Made by a program: the position numbers and the translations under genes
Source: Mobula hypostoma
Lineage: Eukaryota
Direction of reading: 5' to 3'
Length of the DNA: 64,000 nucleotides
Assembly (NCBI RefSeq): GCF_963921235.1
Contig: NC_086097.1
Coordinates: forward strand, 11,408,001 to 11,472,000
Shown here: piece after piece, positions 330 to 26,419 of the stretch
How positions within the stretch are numbered: the first letter of the stretch is position 1
Layout: every line of letters begins with the position of its first letter
The notes under the pieces: generated by a model
Databases searched by the model: none
Seen by the model: the letters and a program-made list of their open reading frames with translations, nothing else
Told to the model about the DNA's origin: nothing

Positions 330-865
330 ATACAGCACCTCTTTCACCTCAGATAGTTGAGAAAGTTTGGTATGGGCCCCCAGAATCCTAAGAACATTCT
401 ACGGGGGCACCATTGAGAGCATCCTGACTGGCTGCATCACTGCCTGGTATGGGAACGGTACCTCCCTCAAACGCAGGACTCTGCAGAGAGTGCTGCAGAC
501 AGCCCAGCACATCTGTAGTTGTGAACTTCCCATGATTCAGGACATTTACAAAGGCAGGGTAGCAAAAGGCCCGTAGGATCTTTGGTGATCTGAGTCACCC
601 CCATCACAATCTATTCCAGCTGCTACCATCTGGGAAACAATACCGCAACATAAAAGCCAGGACCAACAGGCTCCGGGACAGCTTCTTCCACCAGGCCATC
701 AGACTGATTAACTCACACTGATTTGAGTGTATTGCTATGCTACATTGACTGTTCTATTTACTATAAATTACTATGATTACACATCGGACATTTCAACAGA
801 GACGTAACAAAGATTTTTACTCCTCATGTGAAGGATGTAAGAAATAAAGTCAATTCAATTCAATA
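330..865 (+). mobile_element. Rex1/Babar-type LINE 3' fragment (others ~20700-21170, ~25570-26230, ~39260-40960 on +; ~8640-8990 on -)
   Basis: FYGGTIESILTGCITAWYGN...LQRVLQTAQHI; aataaa plus (caatt)n tail. Confidence 0.85.
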
Positions 866-2020
866 CATTCAGATGTTCAGATCAGATAATGAAGAGGTGG
901 GAACAAAGATGTTGAATGCCATTAATTAGAGAAGGATAGTACTGGGTATTCAAAGCCACCTTCTTGATTGAGAAAGTTGATCTGTTGTAGACAAGCAGAA
1001 ATATATTAATCAATTTCTGCTCAGGTAAAGTACACAAAATGCTGGAGGAACTCAGCAAGTCAGGCAGCGACTATGGAAATGAATAACAGTCAGTGTTTCA
1101 GTCCAAGACCCTTCTTCAGGACTGGAAAGGAAGGAGGGAAAAGCCAGAATAAGAAGGTGGAGGGGAGGAAAAAGAGCATAGCTAAAAGGTGATAAATGAA
1201 GCCAGGTGAGTGGGAAAGGTAAAGGGCTGGAGGTGAAGAAATCTGAAAGCTGGACCATAGGAGAAAGGGAAGAAGGAGGGGCACTAGGGGGAGGTTATAG
1301 GTAGATAAAAAGGTAAGAGGACAGAGTGAGGAATAGAAAAAGAGGGAAGGAGAAAGTGATGTTCATGCCATCAGGTTTGAGGCTACCCAGACACAACATG
1401 AGGTCTTGCTTCTCCATCCTGAGAGTGGCCTTATCATGACACAAGACGAGGCCATTGACCAACATGTGAGAAACACAACGGAAATAGGAATTAAAATGGA
1501 TGGTCTCAGGGAACTTCTGCTTTTGCTGGATGGAGTGGAGGTGCTCGACAAAGTAGTCCCCCAATTTACGACGGGATTAGTGTGGTGGGACAGATGGACA
1601 AGGGAATCATGGAGGGAGCTATCCCTGTGGAAACCGGAGCGGGGGGGAGGAGCTAAGGATGTATTTGGTGGTAGGATCCCTTTGGAGATGGTGGAGATTG
1701 CGAAAAATGATGTACTGGATGTGGAGGCTCATGGGGTGGTAAGTTAGGACAAGAACTCTACCTCTGTTAAGGTGGCGGGAAGATGGGGTGAGCACAGATG
1801 TCCAGCAGATGGAGGAGATGCGGGTGAGGGCAGAATTAATGGTGGTGGAAGGGAAACCCCATTCTTTGAAAGAGGACATTGCTGATATCCTGGAAAGGAA
1901 AGCCTCATCCTGGGAACAAATGTGGCAGAATTAAAGGAATTGAGAAAAGGGAATTCAAGCAACACACATAAAAGTGGCTGGTGAACGCAGCAGGCCAGGC
2001 AGCATCTCTAGGAAGAGGTG

Positions 2021-2062
2021 CAGTCGACGTTTCAGGCCGAGACCCTTCGTCAGGACGAACTG
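2021..2062 (-). ncRNA. Minimal type I hammerhead ribozyme in a Penelope 3' tail
   Basis: Reverse complement CAGUUCGUC-CUGACGA-AGGGUCUCGGCCU-GAAAC-GUC-GACUG: CUGANGA and GAAA cores, GUC cleavage triplet, palindromic ACGU stem III. Confidence 0.8.
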
Positions 2063-2361
2063 AAGGAAGAGTGAGTAAGGGATTTGAAAGTTGGAGGGGG
2101 AGGGGGAGGGGGAGATCCAAAATGATAGGAGAAGACAGGAGGGGGAGGGATGGAGCCAAGAGCTGGACAGGTGATAGGCAAAAGGGATACGAGAGGATCA
2201 TGGGACAGGAGGTCCGGGAAGAAAGATGGGGGGGTGGGGGGAGGACCCAGAGGATGGGCAAGGGGTATATTCAGAGGGACAGAGGGAGATAAAAAAGAGT
2301 GAGAGAAAGAATGTGTGTATAAAAATAAGTAACAGATGGGGTACGAGGGGGAGGTGGGGCA

Positions 2362-3720
2362 TTAGCGGAAGTTAGAGAAGTCGATGTTCATGCCATCAGG
2401 TTGGAGGCTACCCAGACGGAATATAAGGTGTTGTTCCTCCAACCTGAGTGTGGCTTCATCTTTACAGTAGAGGAGGCCGTGGATAGACATGTCAGAATGG
2501 GAATGGGATGTGGAATTAAAATGTGTGGCCACTGGGAGATCCTGCTTTCTCTGGAGGACAGAGCGTAGGTGTTCAGCAAAGCGGTCTCCCAGTCTGCGTC
2601 GGGTCTCGCCAATATATAAAAGGCCACATCGGGAGCACCAGACGCAGTATATCACCCCAGCCGACTCACAGGTGAAGTGTTGCCTCACCTGGAAGGACTG
2701 TTTGGGGCCCTGAATGGTGGTAAGGGAGGAAGTGTAAGGGCATGTGTAGCACTTGTTCCGCTTACATGGATAAGTGCCAGGAGGGAGATCAGTGGGGAAG
2801 GATGGGGGGGACGAATGGACAAGGGAGTTGCGTAGGGAGCGATCCCTGCGGAATGCGGGGGGGGGGGAGGGAAAGATGTGCTTAGTGGTGGGATCCCGTT
2901 GGAGGTGGCGGAAGTTACGAAGAATAATATGTTGGACCCAGAGGCTGGTGGGGTGGTAGGTGAGGACCAGGGGAACCCTATTCCTAGTGGGGTGGCAGGA
3001 GGATAGAGTGAGAGCAGATGTACGTGAAATGGGGGAGATGCGTTTAAGAGCAGAATTGATAGTGGAAGAAGGGAAGCCCCTTTCTTTAAAAAAGGAAGAC
3101 ATCTCCCTCGTCCTAGAATGAAAAGCCTCACCCTGAGAGCAGATGCGGCGGAGACGGAGGAATTGCGAGAAGGGGATGGTGTTTTTGCAAGAGACAGGGT
3201 GAGAAGAGGAATAGTCCAGATAGCTGTGAGAGTCAGTAGGCTTATAGTAGACATCAGTGGATAAGCTGTCTCCAGAGACAGAGACAGAAAGATCTAGAAA
3301 GGGGAGGGAGGTGTCGGAAATGGACCAGGTAAACTTGAGGGCAGGGTGAAAGTTGGAGGCAAAGTTAATAAAGTCAACGAGCTCTGCATGCGTACAGGAA
3401 GCAGCGCCAATGCAGTCGTCGATGTAGCGAAGGAAAAGTGGGGGACAGATACCAGAATAGGCACGGAACATAGATTGTTCCACAAACCCAACAAAAAGGC
3501 AGGCATAGCTAGGACCCATACGGGTGCCCATAGCTACACCTTTAGTTTGGAGGAAGTGGGAGGAGCCAAAGGAGAAATTATTAAGAGTAAGGACTAATTC
3601 CACTAGACGGAGCAGAGTGGTGGTAGAGGGGAACTGATTAGGTCTGGAATCCAAAAAGAAGCGTAGAGCTTTGAGACCTTCCTGATGGGGTATGGAAGTA
3701 TATAGGGACTGGACATCCAT
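2362..3720 (-). CDS. Penelope-like RT/GIY-YIG endonuclease ORF (5'-truncated)
   Basis: ORF track 2362..3753; the element-derived part starts at MDVQS. Confidence 0.85.
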   Translation of the reverse strand: MDVQSLYTSIPHQEGLKALRFFLDSRPNQFPSTTTLLRLVELVLTLNNFSFGSSHFLQTKGVAMGTRMGPSYACLFVGFVEQSMFRAYSGICPPLFLRYIDDCIGAASCTHAELVDFINFASNFHPALKFTWSISDTSLPFLDLSVSVSGDSLSTDVYYKPTDSHSYLDYSSSHPVSCKNTIPFSQFLRLRRICSQGEAFHSRTREMSSFFKERGFPSSTINSALKRISPISRTSALTLSSCHPTRNRVPLVLTYHPTSLWVQHIILRNFRHLQRDPTTKHIFPSPPPAFRRDRSLRNSLVHSSPPSFPTDLPPGTYPCKRNKCYTCPYTSSLTTIQGPKQSFQVRQHFTCESAGVIYCVWCSRCGLLYIGETRRRLGDRFAEHLRSVLQRKQDLPVATHFNSTSHSHSDMSIHGLLYCKDEATLRLEEQHLIFRLGSLQPDGMNIDFSNFR

Positions 3721-4296
3721 GGTTTCCTGTCGTTTGAGAAAAGGGAATAGCATTTTTACAGGAGACAGGTTGGGAAGAGGTATGTATAGTCAAGATAGCT
3801 GTGGGAATTGGTAGGTTTATAGAAGATGTCAGTGGACAGTTTGTCTCCAGAGATGGAGACAGAGTTGTTGGGAAGATCAAGAGCACGTAAAGTGTCACAG
3901 ATGTCAATGGGATGGACTGAACCAAGGGGGATAGAATGGAGTCAAGGTATGAAGACATGAGTTCAGTAGGACAGGGGCAACGTTGTTGGATTTCAGGAAC
4001 ATTCTGAGTAATAGGGGAAGTAAGCTGTTGAGCTGTCAGTCGAAACAGATGGCTTTAGTTAACTGTGAGAGATAAGATCTGGAAGCAAGTGCCTGTCATC
4101 AGGGACCTCAGACTGAGGGGTTTCTCTACATTAAAGGATCATAGCCTTGGCTGCAAAGTGATCTTGGAGATCCTCATTGTTCAGAGATCACTGGCACTGC
4201 CCAAAATAACAAAACAAAAGTCTTAGGGACACAAGACTCGACAGGTGCTGGAAATCTAGAGCAATGTGCACAAAAAGCTGGAGGAATTCCACTGGA

Positions 4297-22379: not shown

Positions 22380-23497
22380 GTTAACATCTTAGTCCAAGAG
22401 TATTTTCAGTTCTTTTGTTCTGTACACCAGTGACTACCAGGAATATTCTGGTTGGCAACCCGGGAATAGTCGGGTGACAGCGTGGAGAGACAGCGGACAG
22501 CCAGGAAAGACTGGCACCGTGGGTGTCAGGATTGGCAGTCCGGGCACCAGCTCAGAAGAGCACCCACCTCTTGAAGCTTCTAGTTTACAAGGAGAAACAT
22601 ACCCTCGGGGTCCTCCGAGAGGAAGGGAGAATGATGGACCCAATCGGACAGATACAATTAATTACAGGGAATGACTACGACCAAGAGCTAGGATAAGAGG
22701 CTCTGAGTGTCCAATGTGTTGGTGTGGGAGAGTATTTTCCAGCATTTAAGGTTTACGAGTCTACCAAGCAAAGTTGAAGTGCTATTCCATCCCAGTGGAT
22801 GAAGATGAAATTACCAAGCACAGATGATGTGGTCTTTTCAACCACTGATTCACAAGGCACAGCAATTCGCTCTGGAGAGAGTCATCATAGTCCAGGTCAG
22901 ACGAGAGATAATCCAGGTCAGGTTTCAGACCACAGTACTCAAGTAGATCCTTCGCATGATGGCGGTAGTGAGGAAGGAGGAAGAGAAGCAAGTTAACCAA
23001 GTATGCAGATTTAAGAACAGAGTGCAGAGAGAGAGGGTGGAAGGTCTCATGCTATCCATTCGAAGTAGGTTGCCGTGGCTTTATTGCGTTCACTTTCTAG
23101 AAGTGGCTGTGTGACCTTGGCTTCACTAGAAGAGAGATCCAGTTAACCAGCAGGGCTGTAGCTGAGGCAGCAGAGACAGGATCAGCATGGGTGTGGACCA
23201 AGTATGTCCAGAGGGGCAGATAGTCGGACAGCGTATACATCTTTTGCAAATCCTTCAGTAGGTGCATAGACACCTGAAGAGTAGACTATCTGTTGGACGG
23301 AAGTGACCAACAACTCTGATAGAGGCAGATGCCAAGTTTTTAAGCTCACCAGTGGGAGGTGGTGCCTTAGCACTGCTGGCCCACCACCTCGAGGGAGACT
23401 TGATCAGAAGCGGGCCGAAACTCCCAAAGACAGGTGGCAGATCAACTGATGATCCCACTGGTTAACATCTTAGTCCAGTGTACTTTCAATTCATGGT
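22380..23497 (+). mobile_element. Internally deleted HERO-like (R2 superfamily, REL endonuclease) non-LTR retrotransposon
   Basis: N-terminal Zn-finger remnant CWCGRVFSSI*GLRVYQAKLKC (~22717-22782) joined to the C-terminal REL tail KLTKYADLRTECRERGWKVSCYPFEVGCRGF...AVAEAAETGSAWVW (stop 23221-23223); no RT; candidate TSD TGTATATG (22372-79, 23498-505). Confidence 0.75.
23348..23462 (+). ncRNA. Candidate permuted/pseudoknotted hammerhead-like RNA in a HERO-like 3' UTR
   Basis: GAAA at 23417-20 and CUGAUGA at 23446-52, with six mutually compatible helices abutting or flanking the core (see findings). Confidence 0.6.
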
Positions 23498-26419
23498 TGT
23501 ATATGTACTTCGTTAATAAATTTACTTTGAACTTTGGATATTAAACTTTGAATGGGAAGTTGAATTGAAATGGGTCACCACCAGGAAATCCCATCCTTTG
23601 TGGCAGATGGAGCAACGGTGCTTGGTGAAGTGGTACTCCAATCTGCGTCAGGTCTCACTGCTGTACAGGGGGCCACACCAGGAGCATCAGATACAGTAGA
23701 TGGCCCTGACAGACTCACAGGTGAAGAGGTGTCTCACTTGGAAGGAGTGTTTGGGGCTCTGAATGATGGTGAGGGAGGAGGTGTAGGGGCAGGTGTGGCA
23801 CTTGTCACGTTTGCAGGGATAAGTACGAGGAGGGAGTCTCTCCCACTGATGTTACGCGTCCACCCACATGGAACTCACTCCTGACACTTGCACTGATCTC
23901 CCCCTGGCATGCTTGTACCGGAAAATGTTACGATAAGGATGAGTGAAAGAGCATAGATGTTGTTTATGTCTCTAATAATGGATGTTTGCTGTATGCTCCT
24001 CACTCCTTATTACTAAATGAAAGTTTTTTTGTGTCACAGAAGAAATAGTAGGCCTCATATATGACAGGTGTAGAGATACATCTCTACTTAAGAAGGTAAC
24101 CTGCAGGTCACCCTTGAGCAAGGTGTAGCACCTGCTTTAGCCCCCCGATTAGGGTGAAGCCATGGGAGCAGGAGGTGGATGGTCGTATGAGCAGCTGGTG
24201 CATATCACAAGTCCTGGTTATGCAACCACTGACGCCAGGCAGACATTCTCTGAAGAGTATTGAAAATGGCTGGGGTCACCCATCTTGTAAAGACACTGCC
24301 CAGAAGAAGTCAATCGCAAACCACTTCTGTAGAAAAATTTGCCAAGAACAATCATGGTCATGGAAAGACCATGATCACCTATGTTATACAACGTGGCACA
24401 TAACAAATGAATGGATATATGGCAGCTCCAAATTACTAAAGTGAGCCAAAGTGGTTTAAGGCAATTAAGTGTCAACCAATGACGATCATAAACACAAGAA
24501 ATCCTGCAGATCAACATACATAAATTTATTTTGTCTAGATTTTGCAGATGCTAGAAATCTAGAGGAACTCAGTAGTTCAGGTAGCATCCATGGAGATGAA
24601 TAAACGTTGTTTCGGGCTGAGTCCCTTCTCATGGGCTGGAAAGAAAGGGGAAAAATTCCAGAATCATGCTGTTTGATTATGGTGAACATTGTGTTTACTG
24701 CAAATACTCTAGACAGTGGCAAGGAAAGGTTTCAATGTTCACATCACACACAATGCAAGCAGGACAATCAGACGTATGATCTAGAATCTGAAACAAGAGA
24801 AAGTCTGCAGATGCTGGAAATCCAAAGCAACACAGACAAAATGCTGGAGGATCTAAGCAGGTCAGGCAGCATCTATGGAAATTAATAAACAGTCTACTCA
24901 AATCAATAATTTTAGAAGGTCTCTGTTGGTCACAAAATGTAAAACAAACATTTTGTAGCCCAGGTAACATGTCTGGAAGGTTTTATTCATAGAAAGATGG
25001 ACAGACATGTTTTATGTCAGATAGCCATGTAGGTGTTCAAATTCTGACAGTGACTTCGCCACAAAATAGTTATTGATACACATTCAGTGGGCTTGAGTAA
25101 CAACTGAGCAACTAGGTCGTGTTGTCTAAGATGGGCAAACTCACTATAATTAGGGGGCTTCGATGCTAGTTATAATATTTTAGGTCAGTATTAAAATGTA
25201 TTCCCCTTATACACCAAAAAACAGCATTGGTCCCCAATGTACATATTTAACCTAATCCTCGCATATTAATTGAAGCTGCTTCTAAAGAAGCTACACTTCA
25301 AACTCTGACTCTGGGCAGATAAATCAAAGGCATAGGAGAGTCCGTTATTGCTGGGAAACAATTAGTTGTTTCTCAAGCAGCTAGTAATTATTTTCATGAA
25401 ACCACAAACAATAACATTGAAAGCTAAACATTAGTGATTGAGATTAAGTCCTGACTGTCCAATCTCCATTTTTTCTAGCTTGTGTTTCTCCATGATTCAG
25501 TGTTGCTACCTAATAATCAATCATCATGGCCATTCCACCTAAAGTGGCCAAAGCACACATACAAGTCCTCACCAAGGGATCAGCAGTGAGCCATTCCAGG
25601 TTCCTGGGCATCAACATCACTGAAGGTCTATCCTGAGCTCAGCATATTCATGGAATTACAAAGAAGGCATGGTAGCAGTTTGAGGAGAATTGGTATTTCA
25701 CCGAAGACACATGCAAACTTCTATAGACGTACCATGGAGAGGATTCTACCTGGTTGTATCACTGTCTGGTGCAGAGGGTGAAACAGCCACTGCACAGGAT
25801 CGGATAAAGTTGCAGAAAGTTGTAAACCCACTCTGCTCCAACATGGGCACTAGCCTCCTCAACATCCAGGACACCTTCAAAAGACAATGCCTCAAAAAGC
25901 CACATCCATCATAAGGGCCCCCATTATATAGGACATGACCTTTTCTCATAGCTACCATCAAAGAGGATGTACAGGAACCTGAAGACACACACATAATGCT
26001 TCAAAAACAGATTCTTCCCTTCCACCATTGGATTTCTGAATGGACAATGAACCCACGAAGACCTCCTCAGTATCTTTTACCTCTATTTTGAACTGCTTAT
26101 TTAATTGATTTTTAATATATAGTTCTTACTATAATTTATAGTTTTTAATACTATGTATTGCAATATATGTTTGTTGCAAAACAACAAATTTCACAAAATA
26201 TGCTGCTGATGTTAAACCTGATTCTGATACTGAGCAAACAATCTAATCGATATATTAACACAACACTGCAAAATTATTTACAATGCTTTATTTATTCATT
26301 TTAGTTCAGTTTAACATTTTAGAATTAACATATTGTGGATCTGATCTTGATTAATTTCCAATAGTTTTATAATTTTGTTGGCTGATTTAAGCTTCATTTA
26401 AAAATTATTATTCTTACCT

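Follow-up and report, generated by a model that had tools for sequence, protein, structure and literature searches.

The 64,000-nucleotide stretch of the Mobula hypostoma genome analysed here (contig NC_086097.1, positions 11,408,001 to 11,472,000; hereafter the window) holds a decayed retrotransposon copy between 22381 and 23492, and raises the question of whether the 3′ untranslated region (UTR) of that element is built around a hammerhead ribozyme whose catalytic strands occur in a permuted order. The best explanation overall, to which we give a probability of roughly 0.72, is that the motif at 23348-23462 is a dead copy of a conserved 3′ UTR hammerhead, which would be self-cleaving in intact members of the family and would act in the processing of long transcripts.

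Direct reading of window positions 23200-23620 bears out an earlier note on this DNA as to the strings that make up the motif, all of which are found where it had placed them, and as to their order, with the site strand coming first, followed by the GAAA strand and then the CUGAUGA strand. The parts of the motif, with junction counts taken from the 62 aligned rows described below, are as follows.

23348..23357, plus strand: P-a 5′ strand ACCAGUGGGA, pairing with 23453-62 in an open helix of 10 bp that bears both motif ends
23358..23377, plus strand: P-b hairpin (23358-65 / 23370-77), an arm of the four-way junction
23378..23382, plus strand: stem II 5′ strand (P-c) GGCCC, pairing with GGGCC 23412-16; G23378 is G10.1
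23384..23389, plus strand: P6 5′ strand CCACCU, pairing with 23432-37 and tying together the far sides of stems I and II
23391..23392, plus strand: GA, the non-bulged strand of the putative kink-turn (k-turn)-like III/P6 junction, exactly GA in 41 of 62 rows
23393..23399, plus strand: site strand, comprising the stem III 3′ strand GGGAG, position 16.1 (A23398 in the window, U in the family) and C17
between 23399 and 23400, plus strand: predicted cleavage position, 3′ of position 17
23400..23405, plus strand: stem I 3′ strand UUGAUC, pairing with 23440-45
23412..23420, plus strand: stem II 3′ strand GGGCC, then G12, A13, A14 and A15.1 (GAAA, 23417-20); C23416 is C11.1
23421..23425, plus strand: stem III 5′ strand CUCCC, pairing with GGGAG 23393-97
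23426..23430, plus strand: three-nucleotide bulge and GA, the bulged strand of the putative k-turn-like junction, with 3 nt + GA in 42 of 62 rows
23432..23437, plus strand: P6 3′ strand AGGUGG, pairing with 23384-89
23440..23452, plus strand: stem I 5′ strand GAUCAA, then C3 to A9 (CUGAUGA, 23446-52), by direct sequence reading
23453..23462, plus strand: P-a 3′ strand UCCCACUGGU, immediately 3′ of A9
23463..23492, plus strand: 3′ tail of the element, its end approximate (± 3 nt), from alignment of genomic copies

Between A9 and G10.1, P-a and P-b form additional arms, with the chain running out along the P-a 3′ strand, back along the P-a 5′ strand and then through hairpin P-b, and with the site strand sitting inside what would be loop II. 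As had been proposed, P-a, P-b and stem II, together with the core G-A pairs, make a four-way junction with no unpaired bases, the three helices abutting in this way in 34 of 39 strict parses of the relatives introduced below, which also hold P6, stem III and stem I. The accompanying claim that stem II is replaced by three helices does not stand; the 23378-82 / 23412-16 helix is itself stem II, because the usual G10.1-C11.1 pair is found there, with the partner of C11.1 being the first G of the GGCCC strand and the pair reading G-C in 53 of 58 cells. The linker from the stem I 3′ strand to the stem II 3′ strand measures 0-6 nt in the strict parses, and P6 pairs the segment after the stem II 5′ strand with the segment before the stem I 5′ strand. 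Kink-turns comprise a canonical helix, a 3-nt bulge, tandem G-A / A-G pairs and a non-canonical helix, and the sequence signature of the III/P6 junction, set against this definition, suggests that the junction is k-turn-like. A minority of lineages have another III/P6 junction, for example 5 nt against 0 nt.

The loop of P-b (window 23366-23369) is of separate interest, with a 6-nt palindrome present in 26 of 52 distinct loops, where 200 shuffles gave 7.6 on average and 15 at most. These palindromes are UGAUCA (17), UGGCCA (4), UGUACA (1) and a few others that are perhaps stem. Variation of the palindrome centre with retention of self-complementarity suggests a kissing-loop contact between two RNAs. 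The loop of the Mobula family (CUUUA) lacks the palindrome.

Whether so unusual an arrangement recurs was addressed using 79 metagenome loci encoding proteins of 36-60% identity, retrieved by protein alignment and scanned on both strands (284,057 nt) with a strict pattern consisting of a 4-bp stem III, U, H and a 5-bp stem I, then GAAA-III′, then I′-CUGANGA. The pattern gave 38 matches in 37 of the 79 loci, all on the open reading frame (ORF) strand and 0 on the opposite strand, with 20 block shuffles giving 0-1 match per run and 2 in total, and the helix sequences vary widely between the matching loci. A covariance model was built from 20 instances, the structure supplied to it being P-a, P-b, P6 and stem III only, and returned 59 matches at E < 0.01 in 57 of the 79 loci. 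Where the C-terminus of the ORF and at least 150 nt beyond the stop codon were present (52 loci), the motif follows the stop codon in 48, 47 of these being found through the model and one, L052, through the pattern alone. Its start falls, in most loci, between -28 and +144 nt relative to the stop codon, often overlapping it, and ends ~30-65 nt before the end of the element, such that it constitutes most of the 3′ UTR. In the lineage of L053 (3440-4995) and its twin L054, the motif lies ~1.55 kb 3′ of the stop codon with tandem repeats in between, in a unit of ~6.3 kb.

These counts bear directly on the possibility that the motif arose by chance, given that CUGAUGA, GAAA and short complementary runs are expected somewhere in 64 kb. 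The motifs are indeed short, the folding energy of the region is unremarkable, and Rfam offers no match, with none at gathering score across the window, no hammerhead at E ≤ 10 in 23250-23560 (E-value mode), no credible match in the 5′ end of the window copy (E-value mode), and no HDV (hepatitis delta virus)-like or hammerhead match at E ≤ 0.1 in 16 related loci (68 kb). The lack of an Rfam match is expected because the strand order is permuted, and the models are perhaps unable to represent it; a covariance model of the relatives and one sister copy scores window positions 23352-23458 at 65.4 bits (E = 8e-14). With 38 matches on the ORF strand and none on the other, 0-1 per shuffle run, the predicted U at 23398 found in the family, and all six helices covarying, chance origin was rejected on the comparative data and is left with next to no probability.

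The six proposed helices covary in the distant relatives, and the structure is a matter of observation in two alignments made in different ways. In a MAFFT alignment of 20 sequences, fitted to no structure, 86.1% of cells pair, compared with 60.4% when shuffled (reached in 0 of 500 shuffles) and 38-46% when slid by 1-3 columns, with a covariation score of 0.663 against 0.219 and 35 of 39 pairs changing on both sides. In the model-made alignment of 63 distinct rows, which includes two spurious matches (E > 0.4) and some truncated rows, 90.4% of cells pair, compared with 56.1% shuffled and 37-44% slid by 1-3 columns, with a covariation score of 0.703 against 0.175. Among the modelled helices, covariation extends to 6 of 6 modelled pairs in P-a, 8 of 8 in P-b, 7 of 7 in P6 and 5 of 6 in stem III. 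The two helices outside the model behave likewise over the 63 rows, with 88.4% of cells pairing and 7 of 7 pairs covarying in stem I, and 89-93% of cells pairing and 4 of 5 pairs covarying in stem II. RNAalifold, run with no structure given, recovers P-a, P-b and stem II.

The same alignments decide against a conserved structure of another kind, in which the hammerhead strings would be coincidental and the minimum free energy (MFE) fold would be the one maintained. The MFE fold of 23340-23470 (-46.5 kcal/mol) is nested and different from the six-helix model, consisting of the 10-bp outer stem, a 9-bp helix (23356-64 / 23382-90) that is perfectly Watson-Crick paired in the window, and small hairpins. 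Its z-score is only -1.81, with 12 of 200 shuffles folding at least as well, and in the relatives the 9-bp helix pairs 42.4% of cells compared with 39.7% shuffled and 37-47% slid, with a covariation score of 0.118 against 0.113, whereas the pseudoknotted six-helix model pairs 90.4%. As the 9-bp helix is not conserved in relatives, the nested fold was rejected as the conserved structure, and we regard it as very improbable.

Conservation of the catalytic core was counted in 62 rows holding all three blocks, 60 of them from metagenomes, after two spurious matches and two rows lacking a block had been dropped. U occupies position 16.1 in 60 of 62 rows, and 57 of 59 cells have U-A as the 15.1-16.1 pair, a feature that the window copy lacks through its A at 16.1. 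Of the 62 rows, 59 retain GAAA, 56 retain CUGANGA and 51 retain the core in full (50 of the 60 from metagenomes). Position 17 is C in 30 rows, U in 17, A in 15 and G in 0, although the search model did not forbid G, and N7 is U in 30, A in 16, C in 13 and G in 3. Three loci (L069:22-129, L072:1526-1633 and L103:3741-3848) carry the core UUGACAA, in which C3U is joined by G8A such that the C3-G8 pair is kept; these represent at most two independent cases, since L069 and L072 are near-identical. The C3-G8 pair is needed for hammerhead activity, with rescue by double mutants at the pair cited in PMC11167929. Two further loci, L065 and L046, carry C3U alone.

A fold of this kind at this position could also be explained as mainly a protein-binding 3′ UTR module that starts target-primed reverse transcription, the hammerhead fold being maintained for the sake of its shape and cleavage being negligible or irrelevant in vivo. 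That the motif makes up most of the 3′ UTR, close to both the stop codon and the element end, agrees with such a role, as does the reported binding of pseudoknotted 3′ UTR RNA by R2 proteins (PMC12222951, in part). The constraint on the core, however, is that of catalysis and goes beyond shape, with position 17 never G, N7 free, C3U accompanied by G8A, and G5, A6, G12, A13 and A14 kept; moreover, RNAs of the same block order, termed type-SGC, cleave efficiently (PMC10085705, main text and one supplement file). It is from this pattern of constraint, taken with the published type-SGC biochemistry on the same block order, that we infer self-cleavage. Protein binding and self-cleavage are in any case compatible with each other, and protein binding without meaningful cleavage appears unlikely, albeit an explanation to be taken seriously.

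If intact members do cleave, why should the window copy be dead? A search of 3.48 Gb in 200 contigs of the Mobula genome shows the motif stretch to be a repeat, with 1369 first-look candidates, 40 of which were scored and all found to be 94-100% identical. Of the aligned genomic copies, 28 of 30 have U (T) at the 23398 position, the exceptions being the window (A) and L029 (C), so that the family restores GUC at the predicted cleavage site, in keeping with the suggestion that GAC in the window was a defect of a decayed copy. The refuting condition set in the earlier note, a family consensus without U at this position, is therefore not borne out. The window copy should be dead because U16.1 is replaced by A. 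It also lacks 16 nt that 28 of 30 aligned copies have directly after 23462, has C at 23425 where the majority of the family in the 30-copy alignment has U, and shows a few further changes, which lie in loops or linkers. L007 lacks most of the same 16-nt stretch 3′ of P-a.

The family itself is young, since with the 3′ 112 nt as query 30 of the 40 matches scored showed 100% identity across 110-112 nt. Near-identical sequence is present in sequencing runs of five organisms, and contigs from four runs place the family in two further organisms, with two partial contigs from RNA libraries and no pile-up of contig starts or ends, a signal that contigs are in any case unable to give; two runs with a small share of matches proved to hold the same family and not distant relatives. 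The point at which the element ends, near 23492, is the same in contigs of two other organisms. In one organism (E), the P-a partners show 23349 C>U (64% of depth) and 23461 G>A (47%), with L018 positions 1510 and 1622 corresponding; judged by their separate variant frequencies, these resemble replacement of a C-G pair by U-A from one species or subfamily to another.

What kind of element carries the motif can be read from the remainder of the copy, whose parts are as follows.

22381..22414, plus strand: 34-nt piece of the element's own 3′ tail, directly before the element 5′ region, with the same tail/X junction in L028 and in 13 of 13 sampled X copies
22415..22984, plus strand: X, the full-length element's 5′ region, joined here to the 3′ part through an internal deletion, from copy comparison
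22988..23223, plus strand: C-terminal end of the decayed ORF (endonuclease-like region), interrupted by an in-frame stop (23098-23100) and closed by the family stop codon (23221-23223)
23224..23347, plus strand: 3′ UTR spacer from stop codon to motif, from direct reading and sister copies

Pfam finds nothing on the window copy's own short ORFs because the copy is decayed. In sister copies the ORF ends ...RPDIIVWSD...ELTVPWE...KLTKYAEL...PFEVGCRGF...VQRGR*, in which the RPD...E...K series, picked out by eye, is presumably a PD-(D/E)xK-type endonuclease motif. Longer sister-copy pieces match RVT_1 at 8e-9 and zf-RVT weakly, and an intact 1085-aa relative matches RVT_1 at 3.4e-21, with zf-RVT scores of 23.8-25 bits lying below the cut-off of 27.5. 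The nearest solved relatives of the 1085-aa protein are R2 proteins (E = 3.5e-25 and 6.1e-25, reverse transcriptase (RT) part only), followed by R2Bm (~5e-15) and then LINE-1 ORF2p (~1e-10). By its sequence, with RVT_1, R2 structural relatives and the position of the motif after the stop codon in agreement, the host is assigned to the R2-superfamily (RLE-type) of non-LTR (long terminal repeat) retrotransposons with the motif in the 3′ UTR, as had been proposed. No tRNA-like head was found that would make the window copy a SINE (short interspersed nuclear element).

Named database relatives of the ORF come from Branchiostoma (64-72% identity), sea urchin, bivalves and fishes, with a manta ray protein matching at 86% identity over 18% of the query. 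This spread, amphioxus, sea urchin, bivalves and fishes, fits what we take to be the range of the HERO clade, to which the host possibly belongs, and serves as a lead only. Predicted proteins of Branchiostoma belcheri share 64-72% identity with the ORF, and one of a sea urchin 64%, with most fish matches at only 40-45%. Closeness across such distant hosts is unusual, and could be explained by horizontal transfer or by a very slowly evolving lineage.

The earlier note had placed the motif at the 3′ end of the element. Its 3′ UTR position holds; a simple 3′ end does not, as this is an internally deleted copy with a tail piece in front. Region X occurs as at least 405 first-look candidates in the genome, 40 of which were scored at 91-100% identity, and an RT region lies ~960 nt after X in 10 of 13 loci. 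Directly before X, at a constant junction, all 13 sampled copies (L143-L155) and the window copy carry a piece that belongs to the 3′ end of the element itself. Measured from the cleavage site, these pieces start beyond -1388 and at -908, -514, -176, -69, -62 and -29, and further at +19, +43, +48, +49, ~+80, +95 and +105 (the last three by eye), and from these positions it follows that 6 of 14 copies have a second complete motif. No second upstream motif was found within the 1.5-9 kb inspected at 30 loci of the genome. Internally deleted copies account for 3 of 14 (the window, L147 and L150) and keep the 5′ 570 nt together with the last 260-540 nt, including the motif; such short derivatives may be non-autonomous riders. 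A common 5′ end at 22988 was also considered and rejected, being an artefact of the window copy's own break point. The piece of own 3′ end in front resembles the pseudo-LTR (pLTR) of Penelope-like elements (PLEs), the present element being of the R2 superfamily.

Metagenome contigs often hold the elements head to tail. Exact terminal overlaps occur in L033 (111 nt) and L069 (55 nt), L036, L059 and L100 open with part of a motif and contain a full unit of ~3.64-3.73 kb, the unit in L072 measures 3836 nt, and L080 holds two elements of 70% identity lying 3730 nt apart. L036 in particular carries an intact ORF at 347-3604, with the motif at 3614-3725, 10 nt later, and the tail ending near 3756.

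This position and arrangement, directly observed in both genome and metagenome, point to a role. In intact family members the motif would most likely self-cleave after position 17 (in the window, between 23399 and 23400), with the two cleavage products expected to be held together by ~24-33 inter-strand base pairs, and would most likely serve in processing longer-than-unit or read-through transcripts of elements that lie head to tail or have their own 3′ piece in front. The folded motif is probably also the structured 3′ UTR recognised by the element's reverse transcriptase.

Several observations weigh against cleavage as just described, the footprints in genomic copies foremost. Of 30 copies selected by a search with the 3′ cleavage fragment, not one starts at the predicted site, and none of the 14 over-length 5′ ends lies there, with 7 of 14 running across it; both footprint tests being negative, the insertion templates must have been continuous across the site, whether uncleaved, re-ligated or circular. 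Two RNA-library contigs likewise span the predicted site, with DNA carry-over possible. In the Penelope-like element PAc, hammerhead cleavage was reported to be unneeded for in vitro insertion, with hammerhead mutants having no effect and no reads ending at the cut site, as stated in part of PMC11167929. That all sampled genomic copies were made from RNA continuous across the site, and that the PAc mutants had no effect, also speak for the motif being mainly a protein-binding module. Further points concern the comparative data. Core changes occur in 10 of the 60 metagenome rows, no curated Rfam family backs the hammerhead call (window, motif and 16 related loci), and four of the six helices guided the making of the 63-row alignment. 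The first relatives were selected by a pattern that requires stems I and III, a caveat addressed by the strand asymmetry, the shuffles and the model-based matches. Lastly, 4 of the 52 eligible loci have no motif (L063, L093, L105 and L054). That of L054 may lie beyond the contig end, judging from its twin L053, and L063, L093 and L105, which have ample 3′ sequence, are read as lineages lacking the motif, so that 3′ ends of a different kind occur within the clade; in L063, an (AAT)n-type microsatellite stands at the end in place of the motif.

A bolder reading is that the elements are autonomous “retrozyme-like” LINEs (long interspersed nuclear elements) with a circular-RNA, rolling-circle life cycle, a scheme that we consider rather doubtful. 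Transcription of a copy flanked by two motifs, in a head-to-tail array or with its own 3′ piece in front, would be followed by cutting by both ribozymes, leaving a unit-length RNA whose ends carry complementary ribozyme halves with ~24-33 bp between them. The halves would refold and align the 5′-OH and cyclic-phosphate ends for ligation by the ribozyme or a host RNA ligase, and the resulting circular RNA would encode the reverse transcriptase and be copied by internal initiation and rolling-circle reverse transcription. Such a life cycle, if true, would explain the variable piece of own 3′ end at the start of every sampled full-length copy, and would give a protein-coding retrotransposon a life cycle through circular RNA.

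R2-type elements are under development as gene-insertion tools, and a ribozyme 3′ UTR, with the element's own tail in front, would offer a direct handle on how template RNA is made and recognised. The predicted permuted ribozyme now has over a thousand copies in one vertebrate-size genome and a place in a broad R2-like clade, non-circular permutation having so far been represented by a few hundred metatranscriptome and metagenome sequences (PMC10085705). Opening of the chain inside “block C” by a four-way junction enlarges the space to be searched for permuted ribozymes; current Rfam models and three-block descriptors both overlook these. A solution is also suggested by the k-turn-like junction to a puzzle raised in the main text of PMC10085705, namely by what means the stem III end connects directly to the I/II bridging helix.

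The earlier note knew of no described hammerhead with such connectivity, a statement that is out of date. A 2020 review gives three possible hammerhead topologies (PMC7761336, in part), but type-SGC hammerheads, with the same block order as the motif, were published by Eckert, Friedrich, Weinberg and Weinberg (Nucleic Acids Res 2023; PMC10085705), who define the hammerhead blocks S, G and C and report 583 type-SGC, two type-CSG and one type-GCS sequences; a 2026 paper cites alternative hammerhead permutations (PMC13725137, in part). Type-SGC RNAs were shown to cleave in vitro at the predicted site, with activity lost in a G5 mutant, and disruption and rescue were demonstrated for stems I, II and III as well as the I/II bridging helix. 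These sequences come from metatranscriptomes and metagenomes and are linked to hairpin ribozymes, with virus-like hosts having circular RNA genomes proposed (PMC10085705). In the main text and one supplement file of that paper, retrotransposons appear only in reference titles, and its supplementary figures could bear on the comparison made here. Our literature searches found no permuted hammerhead linked to retrotransposons and, in print, neither such a k-turn-like junction nor an A9/G10.1 four-way opening.

The retrotransposon motif resembles type-SGC in the block order S, G, C, in the same core nucleotides, in two pseudoknots in the core, in a short stem I-stem II linker, and in a bridging helix on the other sides of stems I and II, which corresponds to P6 here when matched from the text and the SS_cons line (PMC10085705). 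It differs in how the chain is opened. In type-SGC the chain runs from stem III to a point after the bridging helix, with the stem II strand directly after CUGAnGA, “block C” treated as unbreakable, and the permuted forms stated to have no multi-stem junction (PMC10085705, main text and one supplement file). Here, the two ends of type-SGC are joined through the GA / 3-nt+GA junction, and the chain is opened instead between A9 and G10.1 by the four-way junction with P-a and P-b, such that the strand after A9 pairs with the far-upstream P-a strand and not with the strand before GAAA. The setting of type-SGC is viroid-like, whereas the motif described here lies in an autonomous retrotransposon of animal genomes. 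We regard the motif as a real, new variant of a known connectivity class, new in its four-way opening, its k-turn-like junction and its place in an autonomous LINE.

Penelope-like elements and retrozymes offer a second comparison, in that they too have a hammerhead in a retroelement that lies head to tail or is preceded by a partial own end (pLTR), and the role of cleavage is unclear in Penelope-like elements also; for retrozymes, the published model is cleavage followed by circularisation (PMC7761336 and PMC11167929, each in part). Their hammerheads have the three-way junction of classical type I or III, in many cases are minimal and work as dimers, whereas the ribozyme here is permuted, monomeric in design and ~105-115 nt long, and the PLE reverse transcriptase is telomerase-like with a GIY-YIG nuclease, unlike the R2-superfamily LINE that is the host here. 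With R2 itself, the elements share the protein superfamily, a ribozyme tied to the element RNA, and a 3′ UTR that is structured and pseudoknotted. The R2 ribozyme, however, is HDV-like and sits at the 5′ end (PMC7761336, in part), whilst the predicted ribozyme described here is a hammerhead that forms the 3′ UTR.

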